This document shows, in pieces, positions 5,317-27,972 of a stretch of DNA of 64,000 nucleotides (the first letter of the stretch is position 1; each line of letters starts with the position of its first letter). Source of the DNA: Escherichia phage p000v. The notes under the pieces were generated by a model. The model was not told where the DNA came from and made no database searches. It saw only the letters and a list, made by a program, of their open reading frames with translations. The DNA lies in sequence record NC_055781.1, one strand, 5' to 3'. The translations under genes and the position numbers were made by a program.

Positions 5317-5582
5317 AATTAACTCGAATCAGTATAACTGAAGAAAAGCTGGGCGAATTTTACGTCGACAACTTTATGAAAGTTACGTATTTTCCATTTG
5401 TTAAAGGTGTCGGTTTTTGGGAAACTCATGTATCTCAATTAAACGAAGGCGACTATAACGAAACACATGAGAACTTTTTAGATTTTCTTTATGGAGCTGG
5501 ATTAACCGAGCTTTATATTGATATACATGAGTTCAAACGTTTAATGGAAAAAGTATTCCAGGCGTATTGTTTGCTCCGATAG
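5313..5582 (+). CDS. hypothetical protein
   Basis: 89 aa, ATGA overlap with upstream gene. Confidence 0.4.
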   Translation: MKLTRISITEEKLGEFYVDNFMKVTYFPFVKGVGFWETHVSQLNEGDYNETHENFLDFLYGAGLTELYIDIHEFKRLMEKVFQAYCLLR

Positions 5583-5589
5583 TATCTCG

Positions 5590-5633
5590 TGCTTTAAGAT
5601 AGGTCTCTAAATATTATGATATAATAGACCTAT
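5590..5633 (+). promoter_or_regulatory. promoter region upstream of gene 55 (MotA-box-like TGCTTTA plus several -10-like hexamers inside an 8-bp inverted repeat)
   Basis: TGCTTTA at 5590-5596; TATTAT/TATGAT/TATAAT overlapping; inverted repeat ATAGGTCT (5599-5606) / AGACCTAT (5626-5633). Confidence 0.35.
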
Positions 5634-5654
5634 GAATTGAGCCAAGAGGTACTT

Positions 5655-6212
5655 ATGACTGAACAAAAACCTAAAAATAACTATGTGAATAATAAAGAGC
5701 TTCTCGCCGCTATAATCGAGTGGAAAAAGGAGCTCTTAAATAATAAAGACCCAAACAAAATTATTCGTCAGAATGATACCATCGGTTTAGCAATTATGCT
5801 TATCGCCGAAGGCCTGTCCAAACGTTTCAACTTTTCAGGATATACCCAGTCTTGGAAGCAGGAGATGATTGCAGATGGGATTGAAGCCTCTATTAAGGGA
5901 CTTCATAATTTCGACGAAACTAAGTACAATAACCCACATGCATACATAACTCGAGCTTGTTTTAATGCTTTTGTCCAACGTATCAAAAAAGAACGTAAGG
6001 AAGTTGCAAAGAAATATAGTTACTTCGTTCATAATGTCTACGACAGTCATGACGATGATATGGTAGCGTTGGTAGATGAAACGTTTATTCAAGACATCTA
6101 CGATAAAATGACGCATTATGAAGAATCCGCTTATAAAGCTCCTGGGGCTGAAAAGAAGGAAGTTGTTAGCGATTCGCCTAGTTTGGATTTTTTATATGAG
6201 GATGACAATTGA
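5655..6212 (+). CDS. 55: late-transcription sigma factor gp55
   Basis: 185 aa (same length as T4 gp55); ATG at 5655 after GAGG RBS; position between the nrd cluster and gene 47. Confidence 0.85.
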
Positions 6213-13840: not shown

Positions 13841-16552
13841 ATGAAAGAATTTTACTTAACGGTTGAACAGATTGGTGATTCAATTTTTGAACGTTACATC
13901 GATTCTAATGGCCGTGAACGTACTCGTGAAGTAGAATATAAACCATCACTGTTTGCTCATTGTCCGGAAAGTCAGGCTACGAAATATTTTGATATCTACG
14001 GTAAGCCGTGTACTCGTAAACTATTCGCTAACATGCGTGATGCGTCTCAATGGATTAAACGCATGGAAGATATCGGACTTGAAGCACTTGGCATGGACGA
14101 TTTCAAATTAGCGTATTTGTCTGACACTTATAACTATGAAATCAAATACGACCATACAAAAATTCGTGTGGCTAACTTCGACATCGAAGTAACATCTCCG
14201 GATGGGTTCCCTGAGCCGTCACAAGCAAAACATCCTATTGATGCTATCACCCATTATGACTCAATTGACGACAGGTTCTACGTATTTGATCTATTGAATT
14301 CTCCATATGGTAATGTAGAAGAATGGTCTATTGAAATCGCTGCTAAGCTTCAAGAACAAGGTGGTGATGAAGTTCCATCTGAAATTATCGATAAAATCAT
14401 TTATATGCCGTTCGATAACGAAAAAGAATTGTTGATGGAATATCTCAACTTCTGGCAACAGAAAACTCCTGTCATTTTGACTGGATGGAACGTTGAGTCA
14501 TTTGATATTCCATATGTGTATAACAGAATCAAGAATATTTTTGGCGAATCTACTGCGAAACGTTTATCACCACATCGTAAAACTCGTGTTAAAGTTATCG
14601 AAAACATGTATGGTTCTCGTGAAATCATTACATTGTTCGGTATCTCTGTTCTTGATTACATTGACCTTTACAAAAAATTCTCTTTTACCAATCAACCGTC
14701 GTATTCTCTGGATTACATTTCAGAATTTGAATTGAACGTTGGTAAACTGAAATATGACGGCCCTATTTCTAAGCTTCGTGAAAGCAATCACCAACGATAT
14801 ATTTCTTATAACATCATCGACGTGTATCGTGTATTGCAAATTGATGCTAAGCGCCAGTTCATCAACTTGAGTTTGGACATGGGTTATTATGCTAAGATAC
14901 AGATTCAATCTGTGTTCAGCCCAATTAAAACATGGGATGCTATTATTTTTAATAGCCTTAAAGAGCAGAACAAGGTGATTCCACAAGGTCGTTCTCACCC
15001 GGTTCAACCTTATCCTGGCGCTTTTGTTAAGGAACCTATTCCAAATCGATACAAATATGTAATGAGTTTCGACCTTACATCTCTGTATCCAAGTATTATT
15101 CGCCAAGTGAATATTAGCCCAGAAACAATAGCAGGAACGTTTAAAGTAGCTCCATTGCATGATTATATTAACGCAATCGCTGAACGTCCTTCAGATGTGT
15201 ACAGCTGCTCTCCTAATGGCATGATGTATTATAAAGACCGTGATGGTGTAGTTCCAACTGAAATCACTAAGGTCTTTAATCAACGTAAAGAACATAAAGG
15301 TTACATGCTTGCAGCTCAACGTAATGGTGAAATAATTAAAGAGGCATTGCATAATCCTAATCTTTCTGTTGACGAACCATTAGATGTTGATTATCGTTTC
15401 GACTTCACTGATGAGATTAAAGAAAAGATTAAAAAGTTGTCTGCTAAATCTCTTAATGAAATGTTGTTCAGAGCTCAACGTACTGAAGTTGCAGGTATGA
15501 CTGCACAAATTAACCGTAAATTGCTTATCAACTCACTTTATGGTGCACTTGGAAACGTTTGGTTCCGTTATTACGATTTGCGTAATGCAACTGCAATCAC
15601 AACATTTGGTCAAATGGCTTTACAGTGGATTGAACGTAAAGTTAATGAATATCTGAATGAAGTTTGTGGTACAGAAGGTGAAGCTTTCGTTCTTTATGGT
15701 GATACAGACTCTATTTACGTATCTGCAGATAAAATTATTGATAAGGTTGGTGAATCTAAATTCCGTGATACCAACCATTGGGTGGACTTTTTAGATAAGT
15801 TTGCACGTGAACGTATGGAACCGGCTATTGATAGAGGTTTCCGTGAAATGTGTGAATACATGAACAATAAACAACACTTAATGTTCATGGACCGAGAAGC
15901 TATCGCTGGTCCTCCGCTCGGTTCTAAAGGTATTGGTGGATTCTGGACTGGTAAGAAACGTTATGCATTAAACGTGTGGGATATGGAAGGTACTCGTTAC
16001 GCTGAGCCTAAACTCAAAATCATGGGTCTAGAGACTCAGAAATCTTCGACCCCTAAAGCAGTACAGAAAGCTCTTAAAGAATGTATTCGTCGTATGCTTC
16101 AAGAAGGTGAAGAATCATTACAAGAATATTTTAAAGAGTTTGAAAAAGAATTCCGTCAATTGAATTATATTAGCATCGCGTCGGTATCTTCTGCGAATAA
16201 CATTGCTAAATATGACGTTGGTGGATTCCCTGGTCCTAAATGCCCGTTCCATATTCGTGGAATTCTGACATATAACAGAGCTATCAAAGGTAATATTGAT
16301 GCTCCACAAGTTGTAGAAGGCGAAAAGGTATACGTTCTGCCTTTACGTGATGGAAACCCGTTCGGTGATAAATGTATCGCATGGCCTTCTGGTACTGAAA
16401 TCACAGATTTAATTAAAGACGACGTACTTCATTGGATGGACTACACTGTTCTCCTTGAGAAGACATTTATTAAACCACTTGAAGGATTCACATCAGCAGC
16501 GAAACTCGATTACGAGAAGAAAGCATCTCTGTTCGATATGTTCGATTTTTGA
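13841..16552 (+). CDS. 43: DNA polymerase gp43 (family B, with 3'-5' exonuclease)
   Basis: 903 aa; exo motif FDIEV, polymerase motifs DLTSLYPSII, KLLINSLYG, YGDTDS; sequence matches RB69 polymerase as recalled. Confidence 0.97.
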   Translation: MKEFYLTVEQIGDSIFERYIDSNGRERTREVEYKPSLFAHCPESQATKYFDIYGKPCTRKLFANMRDASQWIKRMEDIGLEALGMDDFKLAYLSDTYNYEIKYDHTKIRVANFDIEVTSPDGFPEPSQAKHPIDAITHYDSIDDRFYVFDLLNSPYGNVEEWSIEIAAKLQEQGGDEVPSEIIDKIIYMPFDNEKELLMEYLNFWQQKTPVILTGWNVESFDIPYVYNRIKNIFGESTAKRLSPHRKTRVKVIENMYGSREIITLFGISVLDYIDLYKKFSFTNQPSYSLDYISEFELNVGKLKYDGPISKLRESNHQRYISYNIIDVYRVLQIDAKRQFINLSLDMGYYAKIQIQSVFSPIKTWDAIIFNSLKEQNKVIPQGRSHPVQPYPGAFVKEPIPNRYKYVMSFDLTSLYPSIIRQVNISPETIAGTFKVAPLHDYINAIAERPSDVYSCSPNGMMYYKDRDGVVPTEITKVFNQRKEHKGYMLAAQRNGEIIKEALHNPNLSVDEPLDVDYRFDFTDEIKEKIKKLSAKSLNEMLFRAQRTEVAGMTAQINRKLLINSLYGALGNVWFRYYDLRNATAITTFGQMALQWIERKVNEYLNEVCGTEGEAFVLYGDTDSIYVSADKIIDKVGESKFRDTNHWVDFLDKFARERMEPAIDRGFREMCEYMNNKQHLMFMDREAIAGPPLGSKGIGGFWTGKKRYALNVWDMEGTRYAEPKLKIMGLETQKSSTPKAVQKALKECIRRMLQEGEESLQEYFKEFEKEFRQLNYISIASVSSANNIAKYDVGGFPGPKCPFHIRGILTYNRAIKGNIDAPQVVEGEKVYVLPLRDGNPFGDKCIAWPSGTEITDLIKDDVLHWMDYTVLLEKTFIKPLEGFTSAAKLDYEKKASLFDMFDF

Positions 16553-16592
16553 TATAATGCCATGGACGGTAAACTAATTAAATGAGAGAAAT

Positions 16593-17228
16593 ATGAAAAC
16601 TACACCAATCACTATCGCTATTGACGCAATCGTAAAACAAGCTTCATCTCTTGCCACTATGGCTAAAGTAATTAGTCAAAACTCTGCCCGATATAATGCT
16701 ATTCTTGAAACTCTTCGTCGCCCTGGACTGAGTAATTATGAAAGCCGAGTAATTATTACAGGTGTTGGTAAGAACGCTAATATCGCAACTAAAGCTTCCG
16801 AGACTTTTGCTTCACTAGGTATTCCTAGCATGTATTTGAACACCGGGCATTATTCTCATGGCGACGCAGGATTTATTGCACCTAATGATGTATTAGTTCA
16901 CATCAGTCGTTCTGGTAAGACTGAAGAAATGATAGGTGTTGCTAAACATCTTCGTATGATTCGTCCTCAGGTTAAACAGATTCTGTTACATTGTAACCCT
17001 GACATTCCGCAAGAATACGAAGCTCTTTTTGATTATACGTTCTGTACAGGCATCGCGGTAGAGGTTGATGAGAATTCTCTGGCTCCGACCATGTCCACTA
17101 CATTGTTGTTAGCGCTTATCGATACGTTTGCTATCAACCTTTCGTCTGAACGTGGATTTACCTCTAATGACTTCCTTAAGTTCCACCCTGGTGGTGCACT
17201 AGGTGCCATGTTACGAGGCGAACAATGA
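16593..17228 (+). CDS. SIS-domain sugar-phosphate isomerase, arabinose-5-phosphate isomerase-like (KdsD/GutQ N-domain type)
   Basis: 211 aa; VIITGVGKNANIA, HISRSGKTEE and C-terminal HPGGALG motifs typical of A5P isomerases; no CBS domains. Confidence 0.75.
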   Translation: MKTTPITIAIDAIVKQASSLATMAKVISQNSARYNAILETLRRPGLSNYESRVIITGVGKNANIATKASETFASLGIPSMYLNTGHYSHGDAGFIAPNDVLVHISRSGKTEEMIGVAKHLRMIRPQVKQILLHCNPDIPQEYEALFDYTFCTGIAVEVDENSLAPTMSTTLLLALIDTFAINLSSERGFTSNDFLKFHPGGALGAMLRGEQ

Positions 17229-17368
17229 AAGCAATAACAATAGGACTTTTACTATTGATGCTTGTCATGACTATCTACTGGAGCTTAACGGCTCCAGTAA
17301 TGATTCCGACTCTTATAATCGGATGGATTATGATTGGACTACAAGCAAAGTATGAATGCTTTAACTAG
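17225..17368 (+). CDS. small two-helix membrane peptide (47 aa)
   Basis: ATGA overlap with isomerase stop; MKAITIGLLLLMLVMTIYWSLTAPVMIPTLIIGWIMIGL; below ORF-track cutoff. Confidence 0.35.
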   Translation: MKAITIGLLLLMLVMTIYWSLTAPVMIPTLIIGWIMIGLQAKYECFN

Positions 17369-17381
17369 AATAGTGTACAAT
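17357..17381 (+). promoter_or_regulatory. MotA-dependent middle promoter upstream of the nucleotidyltransferase-kinase gene
   Basis: TGCTTTA box, 12-nt spacer, TACAAT -10; 28 nt before the ATG at 17410. Confidence 0.5.
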
Positions 17382-17409
17382 ACACCTACTTACCAATGAG
17401 GACTTCAAC

Positions 17410-19095
17410 ATGAAAAAAGCTGTTATTCTTGGTGCTGGACTGGCAACTCGTTTGTATCCAATAACGCACCATATTCCTAAGGTGCTTGTTAACTATAAAC
17501 AAGACACTATTCTGAGCAATTTGTATACAATTTATTCTGACCTTGGCGCAGATGAAATTATTGTAGTAGTTCATTCAAAATTTGCTGAAACTGTTCGAGC
17601 TTATTGCGAGCAAGAAGGGTTCAATGTGACTATTCGTACAGTTGATGAAGCGTATGGTTCTGCTTATGCTCTTGCTAAATTATACAAAGATTTAGATGGC
17701 CATAACGTAATTGTTAACTGGTGTGATATTATTCCTGACTTTGGTTCATGGTCTTGGAATGTTAACGCAATCTATGTTAAGGGTGATGAATGTCGATATA
17801 ATTTCGATGGTGAAAATATCACTAACGTAGGTTCAACAGGTGGTAATGTTGTAGGAATTTATCAGTTCAAAGACTGGGAATTCTACATGGGTTCTACTGA
17901 TGAGGAAATTCACGAATACTGCAAAGGTCGTGATTTCGTAGAATTCCTTTACGGCAGTGCATTCAATAAATCAGAGCTTATGAATCTAATTGATTTAGGT
18001 GATATGCCTAAACTTGAAAAGGCTCATGAAGTTCGTGAACTGAATCGTAGTTTTAATGCAGTTGAAATTGGCGAAGAAACTGTAACTAAATTCGCGTTAA
18101 CCGAACAAGGTCGAGCTCTTCAAAAAGATGAGATTTCATGGTATTTGAAAGTGAAATCAGATTCAGTTCCTCAGTTAGTTTCGGTAAATGAAAATAATTT
18201 TGAAATGGAACGTATTAAAGGTAAGCCGGCATTTGAATATATTAAATCCAAATCAAGTCTTGCTCGTCCACAAATTGTTGATGCAATTTTAGATGCACTG
18301 AAATTCAGCACGGACACTTATTTTGTAAGTCCTGAAACTGTTCGCCGTGATTTCACTAAAGAGTTCTATACGAAAGTTATTGATCGTTGTGAAAGCATTC
18401 AGCCATTGATTGATTCATTTGGTAAAATCACACGTGTGAACTACACTAAGATTGGACGTCTGAAGCCAATGTTGAAACAAGCTTTAGAACATCTTATTCG
18501 TTATCATAACCGTTCTCAGGGACAGTACTCTGTTATTCATGGTGACCCGAACTTCAGTAATACTATGATTACCGATAACGGCGAAGTCAAGTTTATCGAC
18601 CCTCGTGGATATTTTGGTGAAACCAAGATTTACGGGCCAAAATTGTATGATGAAGCTAAAGTGCTTTATGCTGTTTCAGGTTATGATGAATTCAATGCTA
18701 ATCCGACCTGGGGTCAGTTTACTATTGATGAAACAACTTGTAATGTGACTATTAACATCAATCCATTAGTTTACAAATATGGAAAGATGAGTTCGTTTAA
18801 CGAGTATCATCATTTGGCAGTAGCAATTATCTGGATTGCATTAGGTGGTTATTTCAAGAATAATCCACTTAAAGCGGTTGCCGCATATTATAAAGGTATG
18901 GAACTTCTGACTAAGCAATTACGTAACATGGGCCGTGTACTTCAAGACGGCTCTATTAGTTATGACGTAGCAGAACCTGTAACGGCTACTCTGATTACAA
19001 AAAATCCTGGTAAATGGGTACTAACTGATAAAGAAACTGGTGTTTCCTATCGTCCAATCGGCGGCGATATCACTCATCAATGGGAACGAATCTAA
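17410..19095 (+). CDS. bifunctional sugar-1-phosphate nucleotidyltransferase (N-terminal) / sugar kinase of APH-choline-kinase type (C-terminal)
   Basis: 561 aa; N-terminal KKAVILGAGLATRLYPIT (G-x-G-T-R-L-x-P-x-T nucleotidyltransferase signature); C-terminal HGDPNFSNTMI...IDPRG catalytic-loop-like motifs. Confidence 0.7.
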   Translation: MKKAVILGAGLATRLYPITHHIPKVLVNYKQDTILSNLYTIYSDLGADEIIVVVHSKFAETVRAYCEQEGFNVTIRTVDEAYGSAYALAKLYKDLDGHNVIVNWCDIIPDFGSWSWNVNAIYVKGDECRYNFDGENITNVGSTGGNVVGIYQFKDWEFYMGSTDEEIHEYCKGRDFVEFLYGSAFNKSELMNLIDLGDMPKLEKAHEVRELNRSFNAVEIGEETVTKFALTEQGRALQKDEISWYLKVKSDSVPQLVSVNENNFEMERIKGKPAFEYIKSKSSLARPQIVDAILDALKFSTDTYFVSPETVRRDFTKEFYTKVIDRCESIQPLIDSFGKITRVNYTKIGRLKPMLKQALEHLIRYHNRSQGQYSVIHGDPNFSNTMITDNGEVKFIDPRGYFGETKIYGPKLYDEAKVLYAVSGYDEFNANPTWGQFTIDETTCNVTININPLVYKYGKMSSFNEYHHLAVAIIWIALGGYFKNNPLKAVAAYYKGMELLTKQLRNMGRVLQDGSISYDVAEPVTATLITKNPGKWVLTDKETGVSYRPIGGDITHQWERI

Positions 19096-19481
19096 TGCAC
19101 CGTGTAGAAAACATGCTTAATCTTTGTTTTGATGTCGATGATTGTATAACAGAGTGGAATAACAATCGTGATTACGTGAACTTCAAACCAGACGTCGAAA
19201 TGGTGTCTGCCATTAATGCCCTGTATGATGCAGGGCATACCATAACGCTTTACACTGCCCGTGGTATGAAGTCGGTAGGTCCTGGTCGTATAGCAATTGA
19301 CATTCTCCCAAGTCTGATTCAGAACTTGGAAAACATTGGTTTGAAGTACCATAATTTGCTAACACATAAACCAGTATATGATTGGATTATCGACGACAAA
19401 GCTATGCGTCCTGACGAATTCAAAGCTCTTATGAATAAAGGCGAATTCGAAACATTTAAATCATATAAACCAAATCTATAA
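19095..19481 (+). CDS. small HAD-like phosphatase (putative)
   Basis: about 129 aa from ATG overlapping upstream stop (TAATG); FDVDDCIT resembles HAD motif I, WIIDDK resembles motif IV; capless. Confidence 0.45.
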   Translation: MHRVENMLNLCFDVDDCITEWNNNRDYVNFKPDVEMVSAINALYDAGHTITLYTARGMKSVGPGRIAIDILPSLIQNLENIGLKYHNLLTHKPVYDWIIDDKAMRPDEFKALMNKGEFETFKSYKPNL

Positions 19482-19538
19482 TAATTTAAGTAAGACCTGC
19501 AAAAACCATCGCATCAATTAACGCGAGATGCAAAAAAA

Positions 19539-20699
19539 ATGAATACTTTTAAAATCGGAACGAATTTTGATTTAGCTCTTCTTGATAAAATCGTAGAGCT
19601 CAATAAAACCTATCCTAATAGCTTGATAAACGAAGTATATGGCTCTACAAGAGAAATGGCTTTTGTAGCAGCCAGACCTGATTTTAGGCTTCCTGACGTT
19701 GACAAAAAGATGTTAGAAGACTACGTTAAACGTTGTAACGAATTAGGTATTTGCTTTAACTATACACTCAACACGATAAATCCTGGTTCAAAAAGAGAAC
19801 TAGTTGAGTGGAAGAAGAAAGCTATTCAGGATTATGTTCAGTATCTTTGGTCAATAGGCGTATGGCGTATTACTATCGCTAACCCTGTTGTTATGGAAAT
19901 TGTTCGTGAAGTCAATAAAGATATTGAGATTGAAGTTTCAACAATTCTACATGTCGATGCGGTAACTCAAATCAAATACTTACATGACCAATATAACATC
20001 AAAAAGGTCTGTTGCGGAATTCATAAGAACCGTTCAGTTTCTTTCCTGAAGCGTGCAGCAGAGTTTTGCAATAAGAACAATATAATATTTGAAGTTCTTG
20101 TAAATGAGTTCTGTTCTAATGCTGGTAAAGGGTATACAACACATTGTAGTTATCGTGACTCTTGCTATATTTTCCATAGTACTGATGTTACCGCTGATGA
20201 TGCTAAATCCTTAAATGGATATCCTATGCAGCACTGTATTAAAGCTCGTGATACAGACCCATTTAACTGGTTGAGAACTCGTTTTGTTCGTCCTCAAGAT
20301 TTGAAACTTTATAATGATATTGGTATCACTCAATTCAAAGTTTCAGGACGTACAGGTAGCACAGACTACATTTTGAAAGTTCTTGAAGCATACGCTTCTG
20401 AAAAGTTTGAAGGTAATTTGTTAGAACTGTGGAAGCCTTTAGAGACTATTTTCACTCTTGAAAATGAGACTGAGTTTTCACATACAGTAAATATTGAAAC
20501 CTCTTTGTTAGATGGCTTTTTAGAAAAAAGGTGGTTCAGACATCCAGATTTTGATTGTGCTAATGAAATCTGTGGGTCAACGTGTACATATTGTGAAAGG
20601 TATTATAAACGTCAATTATCTAAAAACGGGTTAGCAGAAAACTCCATATCTATTATTGATATAACTAACTCTGATGACGCTTTGAGGTACCCGGAATGA
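19539..20699 (+). CDS. Cys-rich protein, possible U32-family TIM-barrel/Fe-S enzyme
   Basis: 386 aa; motif order FKIGTNFD, NEVYGS, YTLNT, EVLVNEFCSNAGKGYTTHCSYRDSC resembles peptidase-U32 signatures by eye; C-terminal CANEICGSTCTYC Cys4 cluster. Confidence 0.35.
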   Translation: MNTFKIGTNFDLALLDKIVELNKTYPNSLINEVYGSTREMAFVAARPDFRLPDVDKKMLEDYVKRCNELGICFNYTLNTINPGSKRELVEWKKKAIQDYVQYLWSIGVWRITIANPVVMEIVREVNKDIEIEVSTILHVDAVTQIKYLHDQYNIKKVCCGIHKNRSVSFLKRAAEFCNKNNIIFEVLVNEFCSNAGKGYTTHCSYRDSCYIFHSTDVTADDAKSLNGYPMQHCIKARDTDPFNWLRTRFVRPQDLKLYNDIGITQFKVSGRTGSTDYILKVLEAYASEKFEGNLLELWKPLETIFTLENETEFSHTVNIETSLLDGFLEKRWFRHPDFDCANEICGSTCTYCERYYKRQLSKNGLAENSISIIDITNSDDALRYPE

Positions 20700-20935
20700 T
20701 TTCTAGAAAAAGTTTTAATTATAAACTTAACGAAGAGATTTTGACTATGAAACTGAACACTAACGAACAAATTCTTAAAAAGGCCCTTATGGGCCTGTTT
20801 GAAACCAAAGCGGCTAAAGTGATTAAAGAACCTGTTCAATTGGAATACTACGCTGATGCATTTCTTCATAGTGTTCTTGGAAGTATCGATGCTGAAGCTT
20901 TACGTTATATCAACATTGTCAAGAAATTCAAATAA
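20696..20935 (+). CDS. hypothetical protein
   Basis: 79 aa; ATGA overlap with upstream gene; not hydrophobic, so not Imm-like. Confidence 0.4.
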   Translation: MISRKSFNYKLNEEILTMKLNTNEQILKKALMGLFETKAAKVIKEPVQLEYYADAFLHSVLGSIDAEALRYINIVKKFK

Positions 20936-20958
20936 GCTTTACGAATTGAGTATATAAT
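20935..20958 (+). promoter_or_regulatory. middle-promoter-like element upstream of gene 42
   Basis: AGCTTTA box, 11-nt spacer, TATAAT; 20 nt before the ATG at 20978. Confidence 0.4.
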
Positions 20959-20977
20959 AAATTGTATTGAGGTAAAC

Positions 20978-21694
20978 ATGGGAAAACATAACACAATGAA
21001 ATATATCAAAGCCGCAGATTTTCAAACCGCATTTAAAGCAGTCAATCGTGAAATTTTAGAAAACCCGGAATTCGTAACTGATTCTCGTATTGGACGTTGT
21101 AATGAAATTGGGTCTATGACAGTAGTTGTTGACACTCCATCATCATTCAAAATGACCGACCCACGTATTAACCGCATCTCTTATGAATATGCCGAAGACT
21201 TCTGGAAGTTTATGATTTCTGGTGGTACCAACGCAGAAGAAGCGTTTAAGGCATATCCTAATGTCGCTAAATTTATTTCTAAACCAAAATCAGATGTTTT
21301 GCCGGCGAACTTCAACACTTTCTATGGTCCTCGCATTGCGGCCCAATTACCAACTCTTCTAAAAGAACTTAAAGAGAAGCCTAACTCCCGAAGAGTTGTG
21401 TTCCAAATTCTAGAAAGTTCTGATCAGGCTTTGCTTGATTCGGACGAAACACTTGAATATCCATGTACTGACTCAGTAACTTATTATATTCGTGATGGTA
21501 AGCTTTATACCCACTGTCATATGCGTTCTCAGAACTGTGCTGTTGTTATGCAGTTGGATTTTTATCTCCAAGGAAAATTACTTCATTATATCGCTAACGA
21601 ATGCGGTGTAGAAGTTGGTGATTATACTCATACCATGGTAAGTGCCCATGTGTTTGAACGTGATTTTGATTATGTTAAAGGATTCCTTGACTAA
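20978..21694 (+). CDS. 42: dCMP hydroxymethylase gp42 (thymidylate-synthase fold)
   Basis: 238 aa, close to T4 gp42 length; assigned by position after gene 43 and size; no catalytic motif checked by eye. Confidence 0.85.
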   Translation: MGKHNTMKYIKAADFQTAFKAVNREILENPEFVTDSRIGRCNEIGSMTVVVDTPSSFKMTDPRINRISYEYAEDFWKFMISGGTNAEEAFKAYPNVAKFISKPKSDVLPANFNTFYGPRIAAQLPTLLKELKEKPNSRRVVFQILESSDQALLDSDETLEYPCTDSVTYYIRDGKLYTHCHMRSQNCAVVMQLDFYLQGKLLHYIANECGVEVGDYTHTMVSAHVFERDFDYVKGFLD

Positions 21695-22593
21695 TGGCTA
21701 TTTTCCGCGTACCAATCTTGAGTATGCGGTCTTATGAAACTGGACAGTATGCTATCCTTAAGGATGGCAACTTCCAACTTCATTTGCACCGTGCTAATCC
21801 GGGTGATGTGATTACATATCCACGTAATGCATCTGATATTAAAGAATGCGAACGTCTTTTCCCAGAATTTAAGTTTGTTCCATTATGGTATAAAGATAAC
21901 GCGTATAACACTCGTAAATATTTCTGGACTGAAAATGAATTTGTGGTTGATTCATTAATTGATTATTATGATTGTGATTTTCTAATCACAGATATCACTG
22001 GTTATGGTGGCGCTTTTGATGTGGAATTCAATTTCAATATCACTGCAGACCCTAATAAACCACGTTTTTATATTGATGAATTCTTAAAAACCGACATGTT
22101 GTCTGTTAATCGTTCACTTCAAACTACTGTGTTGAATGAACGTCAAAAAGAAGTGCTGGTTAACGCAGGTGCAGATGGTAATAAGATTATCGTAACGCAG
22201 AAAGTTATACGTCCTTCCATCATGCAGCGTCTTGTAGGTGATTTGGCTCCTATTCATCTAGATGGTATTTTTCATCCATTTCGAATTAGTGACCCATGTT
22301 ATCGTTTTGAACAAGTGGTTGAATGTGCAATTCAATTAGGTCAACCGCTTTATATAACCGATCCAAATAATAGCTTCGACAGAAATAAGTATCCTGAAGA
22401 AGCGCTGATTCGAATTTTTAAACCAACTAAAACTGAGTACTATCAAATTCTTAAAGGACGTCCGAAAATTCAATATTTCGAAAATCCTGAAGAAGTATTC
22501 CATCCAGGTCTTGGTGAGTTCATCTACTTTAATGCTTTAATTTCTTCGCCGTATAATATACCTAAATACGAAGATGTCGTAATCGAGGAATAA
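21694..22593 (+). CDS. hypothetical protein occupying the T4 beta-glucosyltransferase slot
   Basis: 299 aa; TAATG overlap with gene 42 stop; no resemblance to T4 beta-gt seen by eye. Confidence 0.45.
   Translation: MAIFRVPILSMRSYETGQYAILKDGNFQLHLHRANPGDVITYPRNASDIKECERLFPEFKFVPLWYKDNAYNTRKYFWTENEFVVDSLIDYYDCDFLITDITGYGGAFDVEFNFNITADPNKPRFYIDEFLKTDMLSVNRSLQTTVLNERQKEVLVNAGADGNKIIVTQKVIRPSIMQRLVGDLAPIHLDGIFHPFRISDPCYRFEQVVECAIQLGQPLYITDPNNSFDRNKYPEEALIRIFKPTKTEYYQILKGRPKIQYFENPEEVFHPGLGEFIYFNALISSPYNIPKYEDVVIEE
22533..22557 (+). promoter_or_regulatory. MotA-dependent middle promoter inside the 3' end of the 299-aa gene
   Basis: TGCTTTA box, 12-nt spacer, perfect TATAAT; 38 nt before the ATG at 22595. 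Confidence 0.5.
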
Positions 22594-22594
22594 A

Positions 22595-23143
22595 ATGGCT
22601 AAAATTATTTTAGTAGATGGCCCGGATAATGCCGGTAAAACAACTTTCATTAATGACATAATGGAAATTAGTGAAAGATATGTAAAGATTGATTTCCCTA
22701 AACGAACAGTTGATGGACGTTTCGATGTTAAGTCTCGAAATGAAGTTGGCTGTTTCGAAACGATGTTGAATTATTTAGACCCTACTAAGATTTATCTGTT
22801 AGACCGTGGATATATTAGTAACTGGGTTTATGGACGTATTCGACAAGATGCGGACTCGATTCTTGACGTTTATGAACAGGACTATGTTCGTCTTTGCCAA
22901 AACCATGATGTGTTCACAATTATTTTAACACGTAACGAAATGACTGAAAGTTTTGAAGACGACCTTATTACTTTGTCTTCATTCGGTTTTAATACAGTCA
23001 TTTCACATTTTGAAGAGTTTGCAATTCATAACAAAATCCAAACATATCAATTACTTAATCATGATGGTGCTAACAAAGTTATAGGATTTAATGCAAGCGA
23101 ACGTAATGGTTTGATTACAGAAATCATCAAATGGGCTCGTTAA
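22595..23143 (+). CDS. P-loop nucleotide/nucleoside kinase-like protein (thymidylate-kinase-like fold)
   Basis: 182 aa; Walker A VDGPDNAGKTT and DR motif LLDRGYISNWVYG. Confidence 0.55.
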   Translation: MAKIILVDGPDNAGKTTFINDIMEISERYVKIDFPKRTVDGRFDVKSRNEVGCFETMLNYLDPTKIYLLDRGYISNWVYGRIRQDADSILDVYEQDYVRLCQNHDVFTIILTRNEMTESFEDDLITLSSFGFNTVISHFEEFAIHNKIQTYQLLNHDGANKVIGFNASERNGLITEIIKWAR

Positions 23144-23164
23144 GAGCCTGTTTAAAGTTTTAAA

Positions 23165-23189
23165 TGCTGTATAACCCTTAGTATATAAT
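23165..23189 (+). promoter_or_regulatory. middle-promoter-like element upstream of uvsX
   Basis: TGCTGTA box (one mismatch), 12-nt spacer, TATAAT. Confidence 0.4.
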
Positions 23190-23242
23190 CGTTTTATCTT
23201 TTAAACATGAGTAAAATATAATGATGCCTATGGAAAAATACA

Positions 23243-24415
23243 ATGTCTGATTTAAAATCTCGTCTGATTAAAGCTTCTACTTCTAAAATGACTGCAGACT
23301 TGACTAAGTCTAAGCTGTTTAATAATCGTGATGAAGTCCCTACTCGTATTCCGATGTTGAATATTGCACTAGGTGGTGCTCTGAATGCAGGATTGCAATC
23401 AGGCTTGACTATTTTTGCTGCACCTTCTAAACACTTTAAAACGCTGTTTGGACTAACTATGGTTGCAGCGTATATGAAGAAATATAAAGATGCAATCTGT
23501 TTGTTCTATGACTCAGAATTTGGTGCTTCAGAATCTTATTTTCGTTCAATGGGTGTTGATTTAGACCGTGTAGTTCATACACCAATTCAGTCCGTCGAAC
23601 AACTTAAAGTTGATATGACTAATCAGCTTGACGCGATTGAACGCGGTGATAAAGTTATTATCTTTATCGATTCAATCGGTAATACTGCATCTAAGAAAGA
23701 AACCGAAGATGCATTGAATGAGAAAGTCGTAGGTGATATGTCTCGTGCTAAGGCACTTAAATCTCTGTTCCGTATTGTGACCCCGTATCTGACTATTAAA
23801 GATATTCCGTGTGTTGCAATCAACCATACAGCAATGGAAATCGGCGGACTATATCCTAAAGAGATTATGGGTGGTGGTACAGGTATTCTTTATTCTGCCA
23901 ACACGGTATTTTTTATCTCTAAACGTCAGGTTAAAGAAGGTACAGAATTGACCGGTTATGACTTCACGTTGAAAGCAGAAAAATCTCGTACAGTTAAAGA
24001 GAAATCTACTTTCCCGATCACGGTTAATTTCGATGGTGGTATCGACCCATTCAGTGGCTTGCTAGAAATGGCAACTGAAATCGGTTTTGTGGTTAAGCCT
24101 AAAGCTGGTTGGTATGCTCGTGAATTCCTTGACGAAGAAACAGGTGAAATGATTCGTGAAGAAAAATCATGGCGTGCTAAAGCTACTGATTGTGTAGAAT
24201 TCTGGGGACCTTTGTTTAAACACAAACCTTTCCGTGATGCGATTGAAATGAAATATAAGCTAGGCGCTATCTCGTCTATTAAAGAAGTTGATGACGCTGT
24301 TAACGACCTTATTAATTGCAAAGCAACAACTAAAGTTCCGGTTAAAGCTTCTGATGCTCCGTCTGCAGCAGATATAGAAAACGACCTTGACGAAATGGAA
24401 GATTTCGATGAATAA
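23243..24415 (+). CDS. uvsX: RecA-like recombinase UvsX
   Basis: 390 aa; N-terminus MSDLKSRLIKASTSK matches T4 UvsX as recalled; RecA-fold ATPase. Confidence 0.95.
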   Translation: MSDLKSRLIKASTSKMTADLTKSKLFNNRDEVPTRIPMLNIALGGALNAGLQSGLTIFAAPSKHFKTLFGLTMVAAYMKKYKDAICLFYDSEFGASESYFRSMGVDLDRVVHTPIQSVEQLKVDMTNQLDAIERGDKVIIFIDSIGNTASKKETEDALNEKVVGDMSRAKALKSLFRIVTPYLTIKDIPCVAINHTAMEIGGLYPKEIMGGGTGILYSANTVFFISKRQVKEGTELTGYDFTLKAEKSRTVKEKSTFPITVNFDGGIDPFSGLLEMATEIGFVVKPKAGWYAREFLDEETGEMIREEKSWRAKATDCVEFWGPLFKHKPFRDAIEMKYKLGAISSIKEVDDAVNDLINCKATTKVPVKASDAPSAADIENDLDEMEDFDE

Positions 24416-27723: not shown

Positions 27724-27972
27724 ATGGAATTATTCGTGGCTAGTTCAGTAGCAGTTTTAATCGCAGGTATTGGTTCAATCATCATTTACATGTTGCCTTG
27801 GGTAATCGCACTTATTCGTGGCACAAAAAGCACAACAGCAATCTTCTTTGTATCTTTACTCTTTAACTGGACGATGATTGGTTGGATTGGAACTTTAATT
27901 TGGTCTATCGTTGCCGAAAAGAAATCTGCTCAGCAGACTCAACAAGTAATTATTATTCGCGAAAAAGAATAA
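27724..27972 (+). CDS. small inner-membrane protein (two predicted TM helices)
   Basis: 82 aa, two hydrophobic segments. Confidence 0.45.
   Translation: MELFVASSVAVLIAGIGSIIIYMLPWVIALIRGTKSTTAIFFVSLLFNWTMIGWIGTLIWSIVAEKKSAQQTQQVIIIREKE

Follow-up and report, generated by a model that had tools for sequence, protein, structure and literature searches.

What do four co-directional genes, set between the DNA polymerase gene and a thymidylate-synthase homologue, contribute to an RB69-like phage, and what does the last of them do? The block lies at positions 16,593 to 20,699 of a 64,000-nucleotide stretch of Escherichia phage p000v (NC_055781.1), an RB69-like Mosigvirus, and that whole stretch is called the window below. 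A preliminary description of the sequence had joined all four genes into one pathway from ribulose-5-phosphate (Ru5P) to a nucleoside diphosphate (NDP)-arabinose. For the first three genes, encoding an isomerase, a nucleotidyltransferase/kinase fusion and a phosphatase, that route is already published and biochemically characterized in a near-identical phage, and nothing in it is new. The fourth gene encodes a protein of the U32 family and is probably misfiled by current annotation. We propose that this protein is an iron-sulfur (Fe-S), prephenate-dependent, O2-independent pyrimidine C5 hydroxylase and not a sugar enzyme, a reading that we rate slightly above even. Three sugar genes joined by a U32 hydroxylase make the best explanation of the block as a whole, one that we consider moderately probable.

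The preliminary description had called the fourth product a Cys-rich, TIM-barrel-like member of the sugar route; the fold stood, and the place in the route was found to be without evidence. The protein matches Peptidase_U32 (PF01136) with an E value of 7.3e-11 and 42.2 bits (cut-off, 22.4), and its AlphaFold2 model, made with 58 homologues, has a predicted local distance difference test score (pLDDT) of 91.5. Because a Foldseek search of the PDB returned the U32 barrel 5d88 as the best match and non-specific TIM barrels thereafter, the fold data cannot tell functions apart. PDB sequence searches with this protein, and with the products of the downstream GT1 and thymidylate-kinase-like (Tmk-like) genes, found no solved relative. 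Database records label the gene either a peptidase or, in phage Bas47, a "putative enzyme involved in UDP-arabinose biosynthesis," and Lee et al. 2026 (PMC13326640) label the RB69 counterpart gp50 a "sugar or heterocycle reductase" without further discussion. The U32 family consists of Fe-S proteins needed for O2-independent, prephenate-dependent hydroxylations. RlhA makes 5-hydroxycytidine 2501 of 23S rRNA, requires prephenate and works without O2; TrhP makes 5-hydroxyuridine 34 of tRNA redundantly with the O2-dependent TrhO (Sakai et al. 2019, PMC6599085); and UbiU/UbiV hydroxylate precursors of ubiquinone, taking the oxygen from prephenate.

The phage protein is approximately 20% identical to the Escherichia coli U32 paralogues, and alignment with the four of them placed E185 at the position of RlhA E161 and C192, C209 and C233 at the positions of the UbiU Fe-S ligands C169, C176 and C193. 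Ten Cys residues are invariant in 58 sequences of the clade, down to 46% identity, as is a C-terminal CX4CX3CX2C motif. When the clade profile was compared with the E. coli paralogues, RlhA was the best match (hhalign E=1.3e-5 over 205 columns) and TrhP and UbiU matched weakly (E=2.8e-3 and 8e-3), all of these being weak single-sequence comparisons from which we claim no subfamily membership. Across genera the U32 protein keeps 82 to 88% amino-acid identity, the highest range in the module, and, apart from the phosphatase in one of two comparisons (0.105), none of the seven genes has a pN/pS below its 0.13 to 0.15. We conclude that U32 is under strong constraint.

Some of the genes that adjoin U32 give indirect evidence of a link to prephenate. 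In Serratia phage LC53 and Enterobacter phage Entb_45, a small gene between U32 and the thymidylate-synthase homologue (ThyA-like gene) is annotated as chorismate mutase, and Pfam CM_2 scored above threshold in that interval in all five genera checked (Winkler-, Kanagawa-, Mosuguk-, Gualtar- and Tegunavirus). By tblastn, the phage chorismate mutase was found in 51 of 50,697 phage records, all of them from phages of enterobacteria or Shewanella and all in the same cluster, and it adjoins U32 in 12 of 15 uncultivated virus genomes of Straboviridae. The product of chorismate mutase is prephenate. The U32 clade also has hundreds of metagenomic members at 44 to 58% identity, from which we drew 38 divergent loci (31 clusters at 90% identity; 669 kb) found in assemblies and IMG/VR. 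Chorismate mutase, class-I-beta 3-deoxy-D-arabino-heptulosonate 7-phosphate (DAHP) synthase or a fusion of the two lies within approximately 700 bp of U32 in 11 of these 38 loci. A literature search for U32 together with phage, chorismate mutase or prephenate found no paper making the link. DAHP synthase, alone or with a C-terminal chorismate mutase, was seen adjoining U32 at L052 8411-9433, L054 7302-8357, L053 9-971, L015 9145-9891 and L040 9384-10130; it is unusual for a virus to encode an enzyme of entry into the shikimate pathway.

The other flank of U32 bears on oxygen. The preliminary description had placed the block between the DNA polymerase gene and a gene 42 dCMP hydroxymethylase; the polymerase is there, and the second flank is instead the ThyA-like gene, a 5-hydroxy-dCMP synthase. 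Its product matches PDB entries 9iqc and 9ir2 with 534 bits over all 238 residues and is also near-identical to 9iqu. Because the RB69 orthologue, flavin-binding gp48, makes 5-hydroxy-dCMP with oxygen derived from 18O2 (PMC13326640), the supposed gene 42 is, by the literature, no hydroxymethylase. The arabinosylated 5-hydroxymethylcytosine anticipated for RB69-type phages likewise gives way to 5-hydroxycytosine as the acceptor, to which the sugar is ether linked, as RB69 DNA carries alpha/beta-D-arabinofuranose (D-Araf) on 5-hydroxy-dC. Also encoded in the window are NrdD, an anaerobic ribonucleotide reductase (54-1763; glycyl-radical motif RRTCGYLG at the C terminus), and NrdG, its radical-SAM activase (1760-2230; CLHKCEGC), and the phage is therefore equipped for replication without O2, whereas the known hydroxylase needs O2. 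Given the chemistry of its family, a U32 protein beside an O2-dependent cytosine C5 hydroxylase suggests an anaerobic counterpart.

The distribution of U32 was compared with that of AfhE, as the nucleotidyltransferase/kinase fusion is named in phage HY126. An AfhE-like gene is present in 372 phage records, 57 of them from phages of Acinetobacter, a strict aerobe; U32 is present in 220, all from phages of facultative anaerobes and none from Acinetobacter phages. The cluster of phage DLP3 consists, in order, of the isomerase, AfhE, phosphatase, hydroxylase and transferases and has no U32. DLP3 DNA is nonetheless fully tri-arabinosylated, and Acinetobacter phages lacking U32 produce the same base, up to its tri-arabinosylated form; U32 is therefore dispensable for the sugar route.

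The divergent loci show U32 in other company. A homologue of the GT1 gene (RB69 gp46:47) occurs in 26 of the 38 loci, often overlapping U32, and is accompanied across the set by Tmk-like kinases (12 loci), MazG-like pyrophosphatases (8), AfhE-like genes (16) and SIS genes (9). Ten loci combine GT1-like and U32 genes with no AfhE-like gene. A hidden Markov model of the ThyA-like hydroxylase, run over all 669 kb, found nothing in the loci except one canonical thymidylate synthase. Judged by gene content, which comprises a nucleotide-pool enzyme, a kinase, a sugar donor and a transferase, U32 is the sole candidate in these uncultured modules for the enzyme creating the acceptor hydroxyl and appears to occupy the place expected of the hydroxylase.

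Individual loci differ in what surrounds this core. Phages encoding PolIII-alpha (L021 to L024, L043, L047, L055 and L067) share a module of MazG-like, Tmk-like, GT1-like and U32 genes followed by PolIII-alpha, with a radical-SAM gene ahead of the GT1-like gene in L022 and L023; the module looks like a complete hypermodified-pyrimidine pathway without a thymidylate-synthase homologue. Locus L016 (6495-14179) has a Tmk-like kinase, GT1-like, U32, a homologue of the TET-associated glycosyltransferase (TAGT), dUTPase/DCD and UDP-galactopyranose mutase, a gene set that suggests a galactofuranosylated hydroxypyrimidine. On L005 (7135-17428), a bacterial-looking contig with a dockerin-bearing glycoside hydrolase nearby, a U32 homologue and a second U32-like protein have as neighbors a 5'(3')-deoxyribonucleotidase, a PnuC-like transporter, a deoxynucleoside kinase, a radical-SAM/SPASM protein and a nucleoside 2-deoxyribosyltransferase, and this locus could represent either a prophage or a cellular island for modified nucleosides.

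In the mechanism that we propose, U32 would form, without available O2, the same 5-hydroxypyrimidine as the ThyA-like enzyme, most likely at the nucleotide level. The phage would thereby hold an aerobic/anaerobic pair of enzymes, as E. coli does in TrhO/TrhP and UbiIHF/UbiUV, and the chorismate mutase adjoining U32 in most related genera would supply prephenate. The Mosigvirus of the window would have lost chorismate mutase, and its prephenate would come from host PheA/TyrA. In Mosigviruses generally, U32 would be the anaerobic twin of the ThyA-like enzyme, and many uncultured phages would have no other hydroxylase to feed DNA glycosylation. The broader claim, that RB69-like and many uncultured phages use a dedicated Fe-S U32 enzyme, often alongside a chorismate mutase or DAHP synthase of their own, to hydroxylate C5 of pyrimidine deoxynucleotides without O2 and with prephenate-donated oxygen, is put forward as tentative and somewhat short of even, a rating that allows for prior publication.

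Several observations weigh against a U32 hydroxylase. The canonical [4Fe-4S] ligand pattern of the family is CX6CX15CX3/4C, and the fourth Cys (UbiU C232, RlhA C196) has no positional equivalent in the phage protein; our guess for a substitute is C203, which is invariant and lies in a 10-residue insertion, and the C-terminal CX4CX3CX2C motif is also a candidate. In vitro hydroxylation has yet to be shown for any U32 protein. A search of the 64-kb window found chorismate mutase nowhere, and dependence on host PheA/TyrA would therefore be required of the Mosigvirus. The Dhakaviruses of E. coli have the sugar genes and the ThyA-like gene and lack U32, which rules out a general rule that all phages of facultative anaerobes need it. 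The divergent loci span approximately 10 kb on each side of U32, which leaves room for a ThyA-like gene in the remainder of those genomes. Finally, the frequency of AfhE-like and SIS genes in the divergent loci leaves a sugar role compatible with the context; the stricter idea that U32 never accompanies sugar genes outside Straboviridae is ruled out by the same AfhE-like genes.

That sugar role is the alternative that survives best, and we consider it unlikely. Here all four genes would belong to the sugar route, with U32 serving as a reductase, epimerase or mutase of the pentose or the sugar nucleotide. U32 does sit inside the sugar-gene block, is labeled accordingly in Bas47 and by Lee et al. 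(PMC13326640), has an AfhE-like gene nearby in those 16 divergent loci and forms a TIM barrel that weakly resembles aldolases and sugar isomerases in structure. Acinetobacter phages, however, build the same D-Araf chains without it, and AfhE plus AfhF, the HY126 phosphatase, reportedly account for the conversion of arabinose-5-phosphate (A5P) to UDP-arabinose, as far as the account in PMC13326640 extends. Moreover, the ten loci that pair GT1-like with U32 have no AfhE-like gene, pentose chemistry offers no reason for an association with chorismate mutase and DAHP synthase, and the characterized U32 members are all hydroxylation factors.

For the first three genes, the core of the route given in the preliminary description (isomerase, nucleotidyltransferase/kinase fusion and HAD phosphatase) was upheld and its order of steps was not. 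An open reading frame (ORF) listing returned the four co-directional ORFs as described (Table 1), and all motifs that had been quoted were found in the translations: GVGKN, SRSGKTEE and HPGGALG in the isomerase; GAGLATRLYPIT, HGDPNFSNTMI and IDPRG in the fusion; and FDVDDCIT and WIIDDK in the phosphatase. That these genes produce the sugar donor for DNA arabinosylation, as shown elsewhere for near-identical proteins, we regard as very likely.

The isomerase prediction was supported by SIS (PF01380; E=9.6e-10, 38.8 bits, cut-off 25) and by the NCBIfam models for KpsF/GutQ (TIGR00393, 8.5e-32) and KdsD (NF008141, 3.4e-30). Its nearest solved relatives are 3etn (9.7e-25), 5uqi and 2xhz (2e-18), of which the first two are single-domain proteins and the third is the SIS domain of E. 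coli KdsD. Residues K60, H89, E112, E157 and H198 are invariant in an alignment with E. coli KdsD, DLP3 gp83 and LC53, and we take them to correspond to the KdsD catalytic set K59, H88, E111, E152 and H193 known from work on 2xhz. The phage protein ends after the SIS domain without the C-terminal CBS pair and scores 110.8 bits against an NCBIfam full-length cut-off of 203.7. The best match is the single-domain Bacteroides fragilis enzyme 3etn, and the missing CBS pair is not evidence against the predicted isomerase activity.

The predicted nucleotidyltransferase was found at residues 3 to 99 of the 561-aa protein (PF00483, 1.3e-9), where the N terminus carries the GxGxxxR(L) loop GAGLATRLYPIT and many sugar-1-phosphate nucleotidyltransferase models match; a PDB sequence search with the full-length protein returned only distant nucleotidyltransferases, such as 1jyk (2.3e-5). 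The APH match (PF01636) expected for the second half did not appear in the Pfam search. That half contains the HGDPNFSN and IDPRG motifs and gave sub-threshold kinase-like matches at residues 308 to 409 (Fructosamin_kin, EcKL and Seadorna_VP7). It had no match in the PDB sequence search, and structural matches of the kinase domain to 3ham and 6hwl are published (Lee et al. 2026, PMC13326640). The 561-aa proteins of the window and of Bas47 share 99% identity, and Bas47 is reported to carry arabinosylated 5-hydroxycytosine (PMC13326640). The HAD phosphatase prediction agreed with TIGR01689, "capsule biosynthesis phosphatase" (1.9e-13), which places the protein in the EcbF/BcbF capsule phosphatase subfamily, and with its DVDD and IIDDK motifs. 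Of 129 aligned residues, 128 are identical to PDB 9iqw, and 1xpj also matches (1.5e-10). We infer that 9iqw is HY126 AfhF and that 9iqc, 9ir2 and 9iqu are likewise an HY126 protein, in which case the published enzymology would be directly applicable here.

The published work assigns each step. Thomas et al. 2018 (PMC6024577) proposed RB69 ORF055c and ORF53_52c as UDP-arabinose genes, and showed the 561-aa protein to be a single ORF, and Lee et al. 2026 (Nucleic Acids Research, PMC13326640) assigned the steps of the pathway to gp55, gp52:53 and gp51. In the summary of He et al. 2026 contained in PMC13326640, HY126 AfhE phosphorylates arabinofuranose-5-phosphate to the 1,5-bisphosphate, the Mg-dependent HAD phosphatase AfhF converts the bisphosphate to arabinose-1-phosphate (Ara-1-P), and the nucleotidyltransferase domain of AfhE joins Ara-1-P and UTP into UDP-D-arabinofuranose (UDP-Araf). 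UDP-Araf was accepted as a donor by DLP3 glycosyltransferases in vitro. Applied to the window, the SIS isomerase would convert host Ru5P to D-arabinose-5-phosphate, the C-terminal kinase domain of the fusion would phosphorylate C1 to give arabinofuranose-1,5-bisphosphate, the 133-aa phosphatase would strip the 5-phosphate, and the N-terminal domain would form UDP-D-Araf from Ara-1-P and UTP. Downstream glycosyltransferases would transfer the sugar to 5-hydroxycytosine, the base being made as 5-hydroxy-dCMP by the adjacent O2-using ThyA-like flavoenzyme.

The preliminary description had drawn the route through free arabinose, with A5P dephosphorylated before C1 phosphorylation and nucleotidylation. 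That order is chemically plausible and of a salvage type, and the functions are still worded so in Table 1 of PMC13326640; we nevertheless give it little credence. The precedent of ADP-heptose synthesis fits the bisphosphate order instead. The text of the same paper, where it summarizes the HY126 enzymes, has AfhE as an A5P kinase and AfhF acting on the bisphosphate, so that the order reported there runs from A5P through Ara-1,5-bisphosphate and Ara-1-P to UDP-Araf, and a heptose-1,7-bisphosphate phosphatase is among the nearest analogues of the phosphatase in structure (PMC13326640).

Variants of the sugar cluster occur in Bp7 (Dhakavirus, L011) and Klebsiella phage Potts1 (Marfavirus, L012), in which the AfhE-like gene is only 42 to 43% identical, the phosphatase is present and the SIS isomerase is absent. 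These clusters may draw A5P from host KdsD/GutQ or may activate a different sugar.

Two further readings of U32 concern its partner and its substrate. U32 might not itself be a hydroxylase and might instead, as an Fe-S partner, pass electrons to the ThyA-like flavoenzyme or reduce its flavin: it has two putative Cys clusters, the ThyA-like enzyme requires reduced flavin (PMC13326640), and the two genes are adjacent in Straboviridae. We think this improbable, as 37 of the 38 divergent loci have U32 without a ThyA-like gene in the locus, phages with a ThyA-like gene and no U32 are fully modified, and the neighboring chorismate mutase and DAHP synthase genes would be unaccounted for. Least likely of all is a U32 without a role in DNA modification, either hydroxylating host or phage tRNA or rRNA, as the RNA substrates of TrhP and RlhA (the nucleic-acid substrates characterized for the family) would suggest, or acting as a collagenase-like protease, as "peptidase" annotations in many records have it; the phage protein is without the long extensions seen at the C termini of RlhA and TrhP and is consistently found among MazG-like, Tmk-like, GT1-like, dCMP deaminase, dUTPase and TAGT genes, and the literature has U32 proteins as Fe-S hydroxylation factors, with a peptidase role for RlhA left open by Kimura et al.

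A U32 hydroxylase would fill a gap in the published model, in which the sole known 5-hydroxy-dCMP synthase needs O2, yet the phages infect facultative anaerobes of the gut and carry an anaerobic ribonucleotide reductase. If correct, the proposal would make this the first U32 enzyme to act on DNA precursors and the first case of a virus using prephenate as an oxygen donor. It would also provide a second entry point into hypermodified pyrimidines, one that is not a thymidylate synthase, and so close the O2 gap. A search for U32 accompanied by GT1-like and kinase genes, whether or not a chorismate mutase or DAHP synthase is also present, would in that case bring up phages with glycosylated DNA that thymidylate-synthase screens miss. 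The phage protein could, moreover, offer the field a small, soluble, single-subunit U32 enzyme with a simple nucleotide substrate.

The 4.1-kb block is 97 to 99.7% identical in DNA sequence in approximately 150 Mosigvirus genomes, and because of that conservation it is no chance arrangement; more distant relatives are found in phages of Klebsiella, Serratia, Yersinia, Proteus and others. Its features and those of its surroundings are listed in Table 1.

Table 1. Features in and around the four-gene block (positions in the window)
Feature	Position	Strand	Remarks
Family-B DNA polymerase	13841-16552		Upstream flank of the four-gene block
SIS arabinose-5-phosphate isomerase (Ru5P <-> A5P)	16593-17228	+	211 aa; counterpart of RB69 gp55
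Hydrophobic, membrane-like ORF	17225-17368	+	47 aa; overlaps isomerase stop codon; translation MKAITIGLLLLMLVMTIYWSLTAPVMIPTLIIGWIMIGLQAKYECFN
Bifunctional nucleotidyltransferase/kinase	17410-19095	+	561 aa; counterpart of RB69 gp52:53 and HY126 AfhE
HAD-type phosphatase	19080-19481	+	133 aa; counterpart of RB69 gp51 and HY126 AfhF
U32-family TIM-barrel protein	19539-20699	+	386 aa; 10 clade-invariant Cys; counterpart of RB69 gp50
ORF overlapping U32 stop codon by 4 nt	20696-20935	+	79 aa; without Pfam match
Thymidylate-synthase homologue (5-hydroxy-dCMP synthase)	20978-21694	+	Counterpart of RB69 gp48; matches PDB 9iqc/9ir2
Candidate base-proximal DNA arabinosyltransferase "GT1"	21694-22593	+	RB69 gp46:47 according to PMC13326640; no Pfam match
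Thymidylate-kinase-like nucleotide kinase	22595-23143	+	RB69 gp45 according to PMC13326640; weak dTMP-kinase match
Imm superinfection-immunity homologue	27760-27963	+	Found by tblastn with Bp7 Imm

The base composition is even throughout the block, and a promoter and terminator scan of positions 16400 to 23300 found fewer promoter-like sites than in shuffled sequence and nothing interpretable. The four genes had been thought to replace imm. They do not, as a homologue of the T4-type membrane protein Imm is present with 51% identity over 72 aa to Imm of Bp7 (tblastn E=4e-21); it lies approximately 7 kb downstream of the position that imm has in T4 and has been relocated, and in Dhakavirus Bp7 imm adjoins the arabinose cluster.

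Two small ORFs in the interval, of 47 and 79 aa, were absent from the preliminary description. The 47-aa ORF is 98% identical to an annotated coding sequence (CDS) of Bas47, and equivalent small CDSs are annotated in LC53, whose record notes transmembrane segments, and in PM2 and PEi20. The 79-aa ORF lies in the slot adjoining the chorismate mutase of other genera, is possibly translationally coupled to U32 through their overlap and could encode a small U32 partner. As a degenerate chorismate mutase it was rejected, having no CM_2 or other Pfam match at E<=10 and an hhalign probability of 0.1% against the phage chorismate mutase alignment; moreover, its homologues in PM2 (L017 7155-7328) and phiR1-RT (L020 7194-7391) precede a separate, true chorismate mutase. 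Between the phosphatase and U32 genes, LC53 (L007), PEi20 (L019) and phiR1-RT (L020) carry a Seg-type homing endonuclease gene, in each case at 5352-5990, which is absent from that junction in the window.

The closest known system is the arabinosyl-5-hydroxycytosine system of HY126 (Afh) and RB69 (gp45 to gp55), to which the window is identical in gene set and order and from which it shows no material difference for the first three genes; we conclude that the two are the same system. The published accounts that are accessible give gp50 a generic label only and, within what they cover, make no mention of the chorismate mutase of other genera. KdsD/GutQ and the single-domain B. fragilis enzyme (2xhz and 3etn) share with the isomerase of the window the SIS fold, the Lys/His/Glu/Glu/His positions and the HPGGALG motif. 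The phage enzyme differs from KdsD in its length (211 against 328 aa), in the absence of the CBS pair and in a product, A5P, that feeds a nucleotide sugar and not 3-deoxy-D-manno-octulosonate (Kdo).

Synthesis of ADP-L-glycero-D-manno-heptose uses the SIS isomerase GmhA, the kinase/nucleotidyltransferase HldE and the HAD bisphosphate phosphatase GmhB. It shares these enzyme types with the window (SIS isomerase, small HAD phosphatase and kinase/nucleotidyltransferase fusion) and follows the same four-step logic, in which a ketose phosphate is isomerized, phosphorylated at the anomeric position to a bisphosphate, relieved of the distal phosphate and joined to a nucleotide. The route in the window differs in using a pentose and not a heptose, UTP and not ATP, and in making a product for DNA and not for lipopolysaccharide. 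Its kinase domain also differs from that of HldE, being protein-kinase/APH-like where HldE is ribokinase-like, and the domain order is nucleotidyltransferase and then kinase.

For the fourth gene the relevant systems are RlhA, TrhP and UbiU/UbiV, which share with the phage protein the U32 TIM barrel, E185 and three Cys positions; the pyrimidine C5 hydroxylation carried out by RlhA and TrhP is the chemistry proposed here, and the phage clade is linked to prephenate-forming genes. In contrast to all four, the phage protein forms a distinct clade in which a 10-residue, Cys-containing insertion replaces the CX3/4C element and an extra CX4CX3CX2C motif stands at the C terminus; it is encoded by a virus, its presumed substrate is a deoxynucleotide or DNA, and its activity is predicted. 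The nearest parallel to the arrangement as a whole is TrhO/TrhP (PMC6599085), in which two unrelated enzymes, one O2 dependent and the other prephenate dependent, make the same 5-hydroxypyrimidine and genomes carry both or one. The phage enzymes would differ from that pair in that the aerobic member is a flavoenzyme of thymidylate-synthase fold and not a rhodanese, with their redundancy only presumed, and the distribution of the ThyA-like and U32 genes among phages is analogous to that of TrhO and TrhP.

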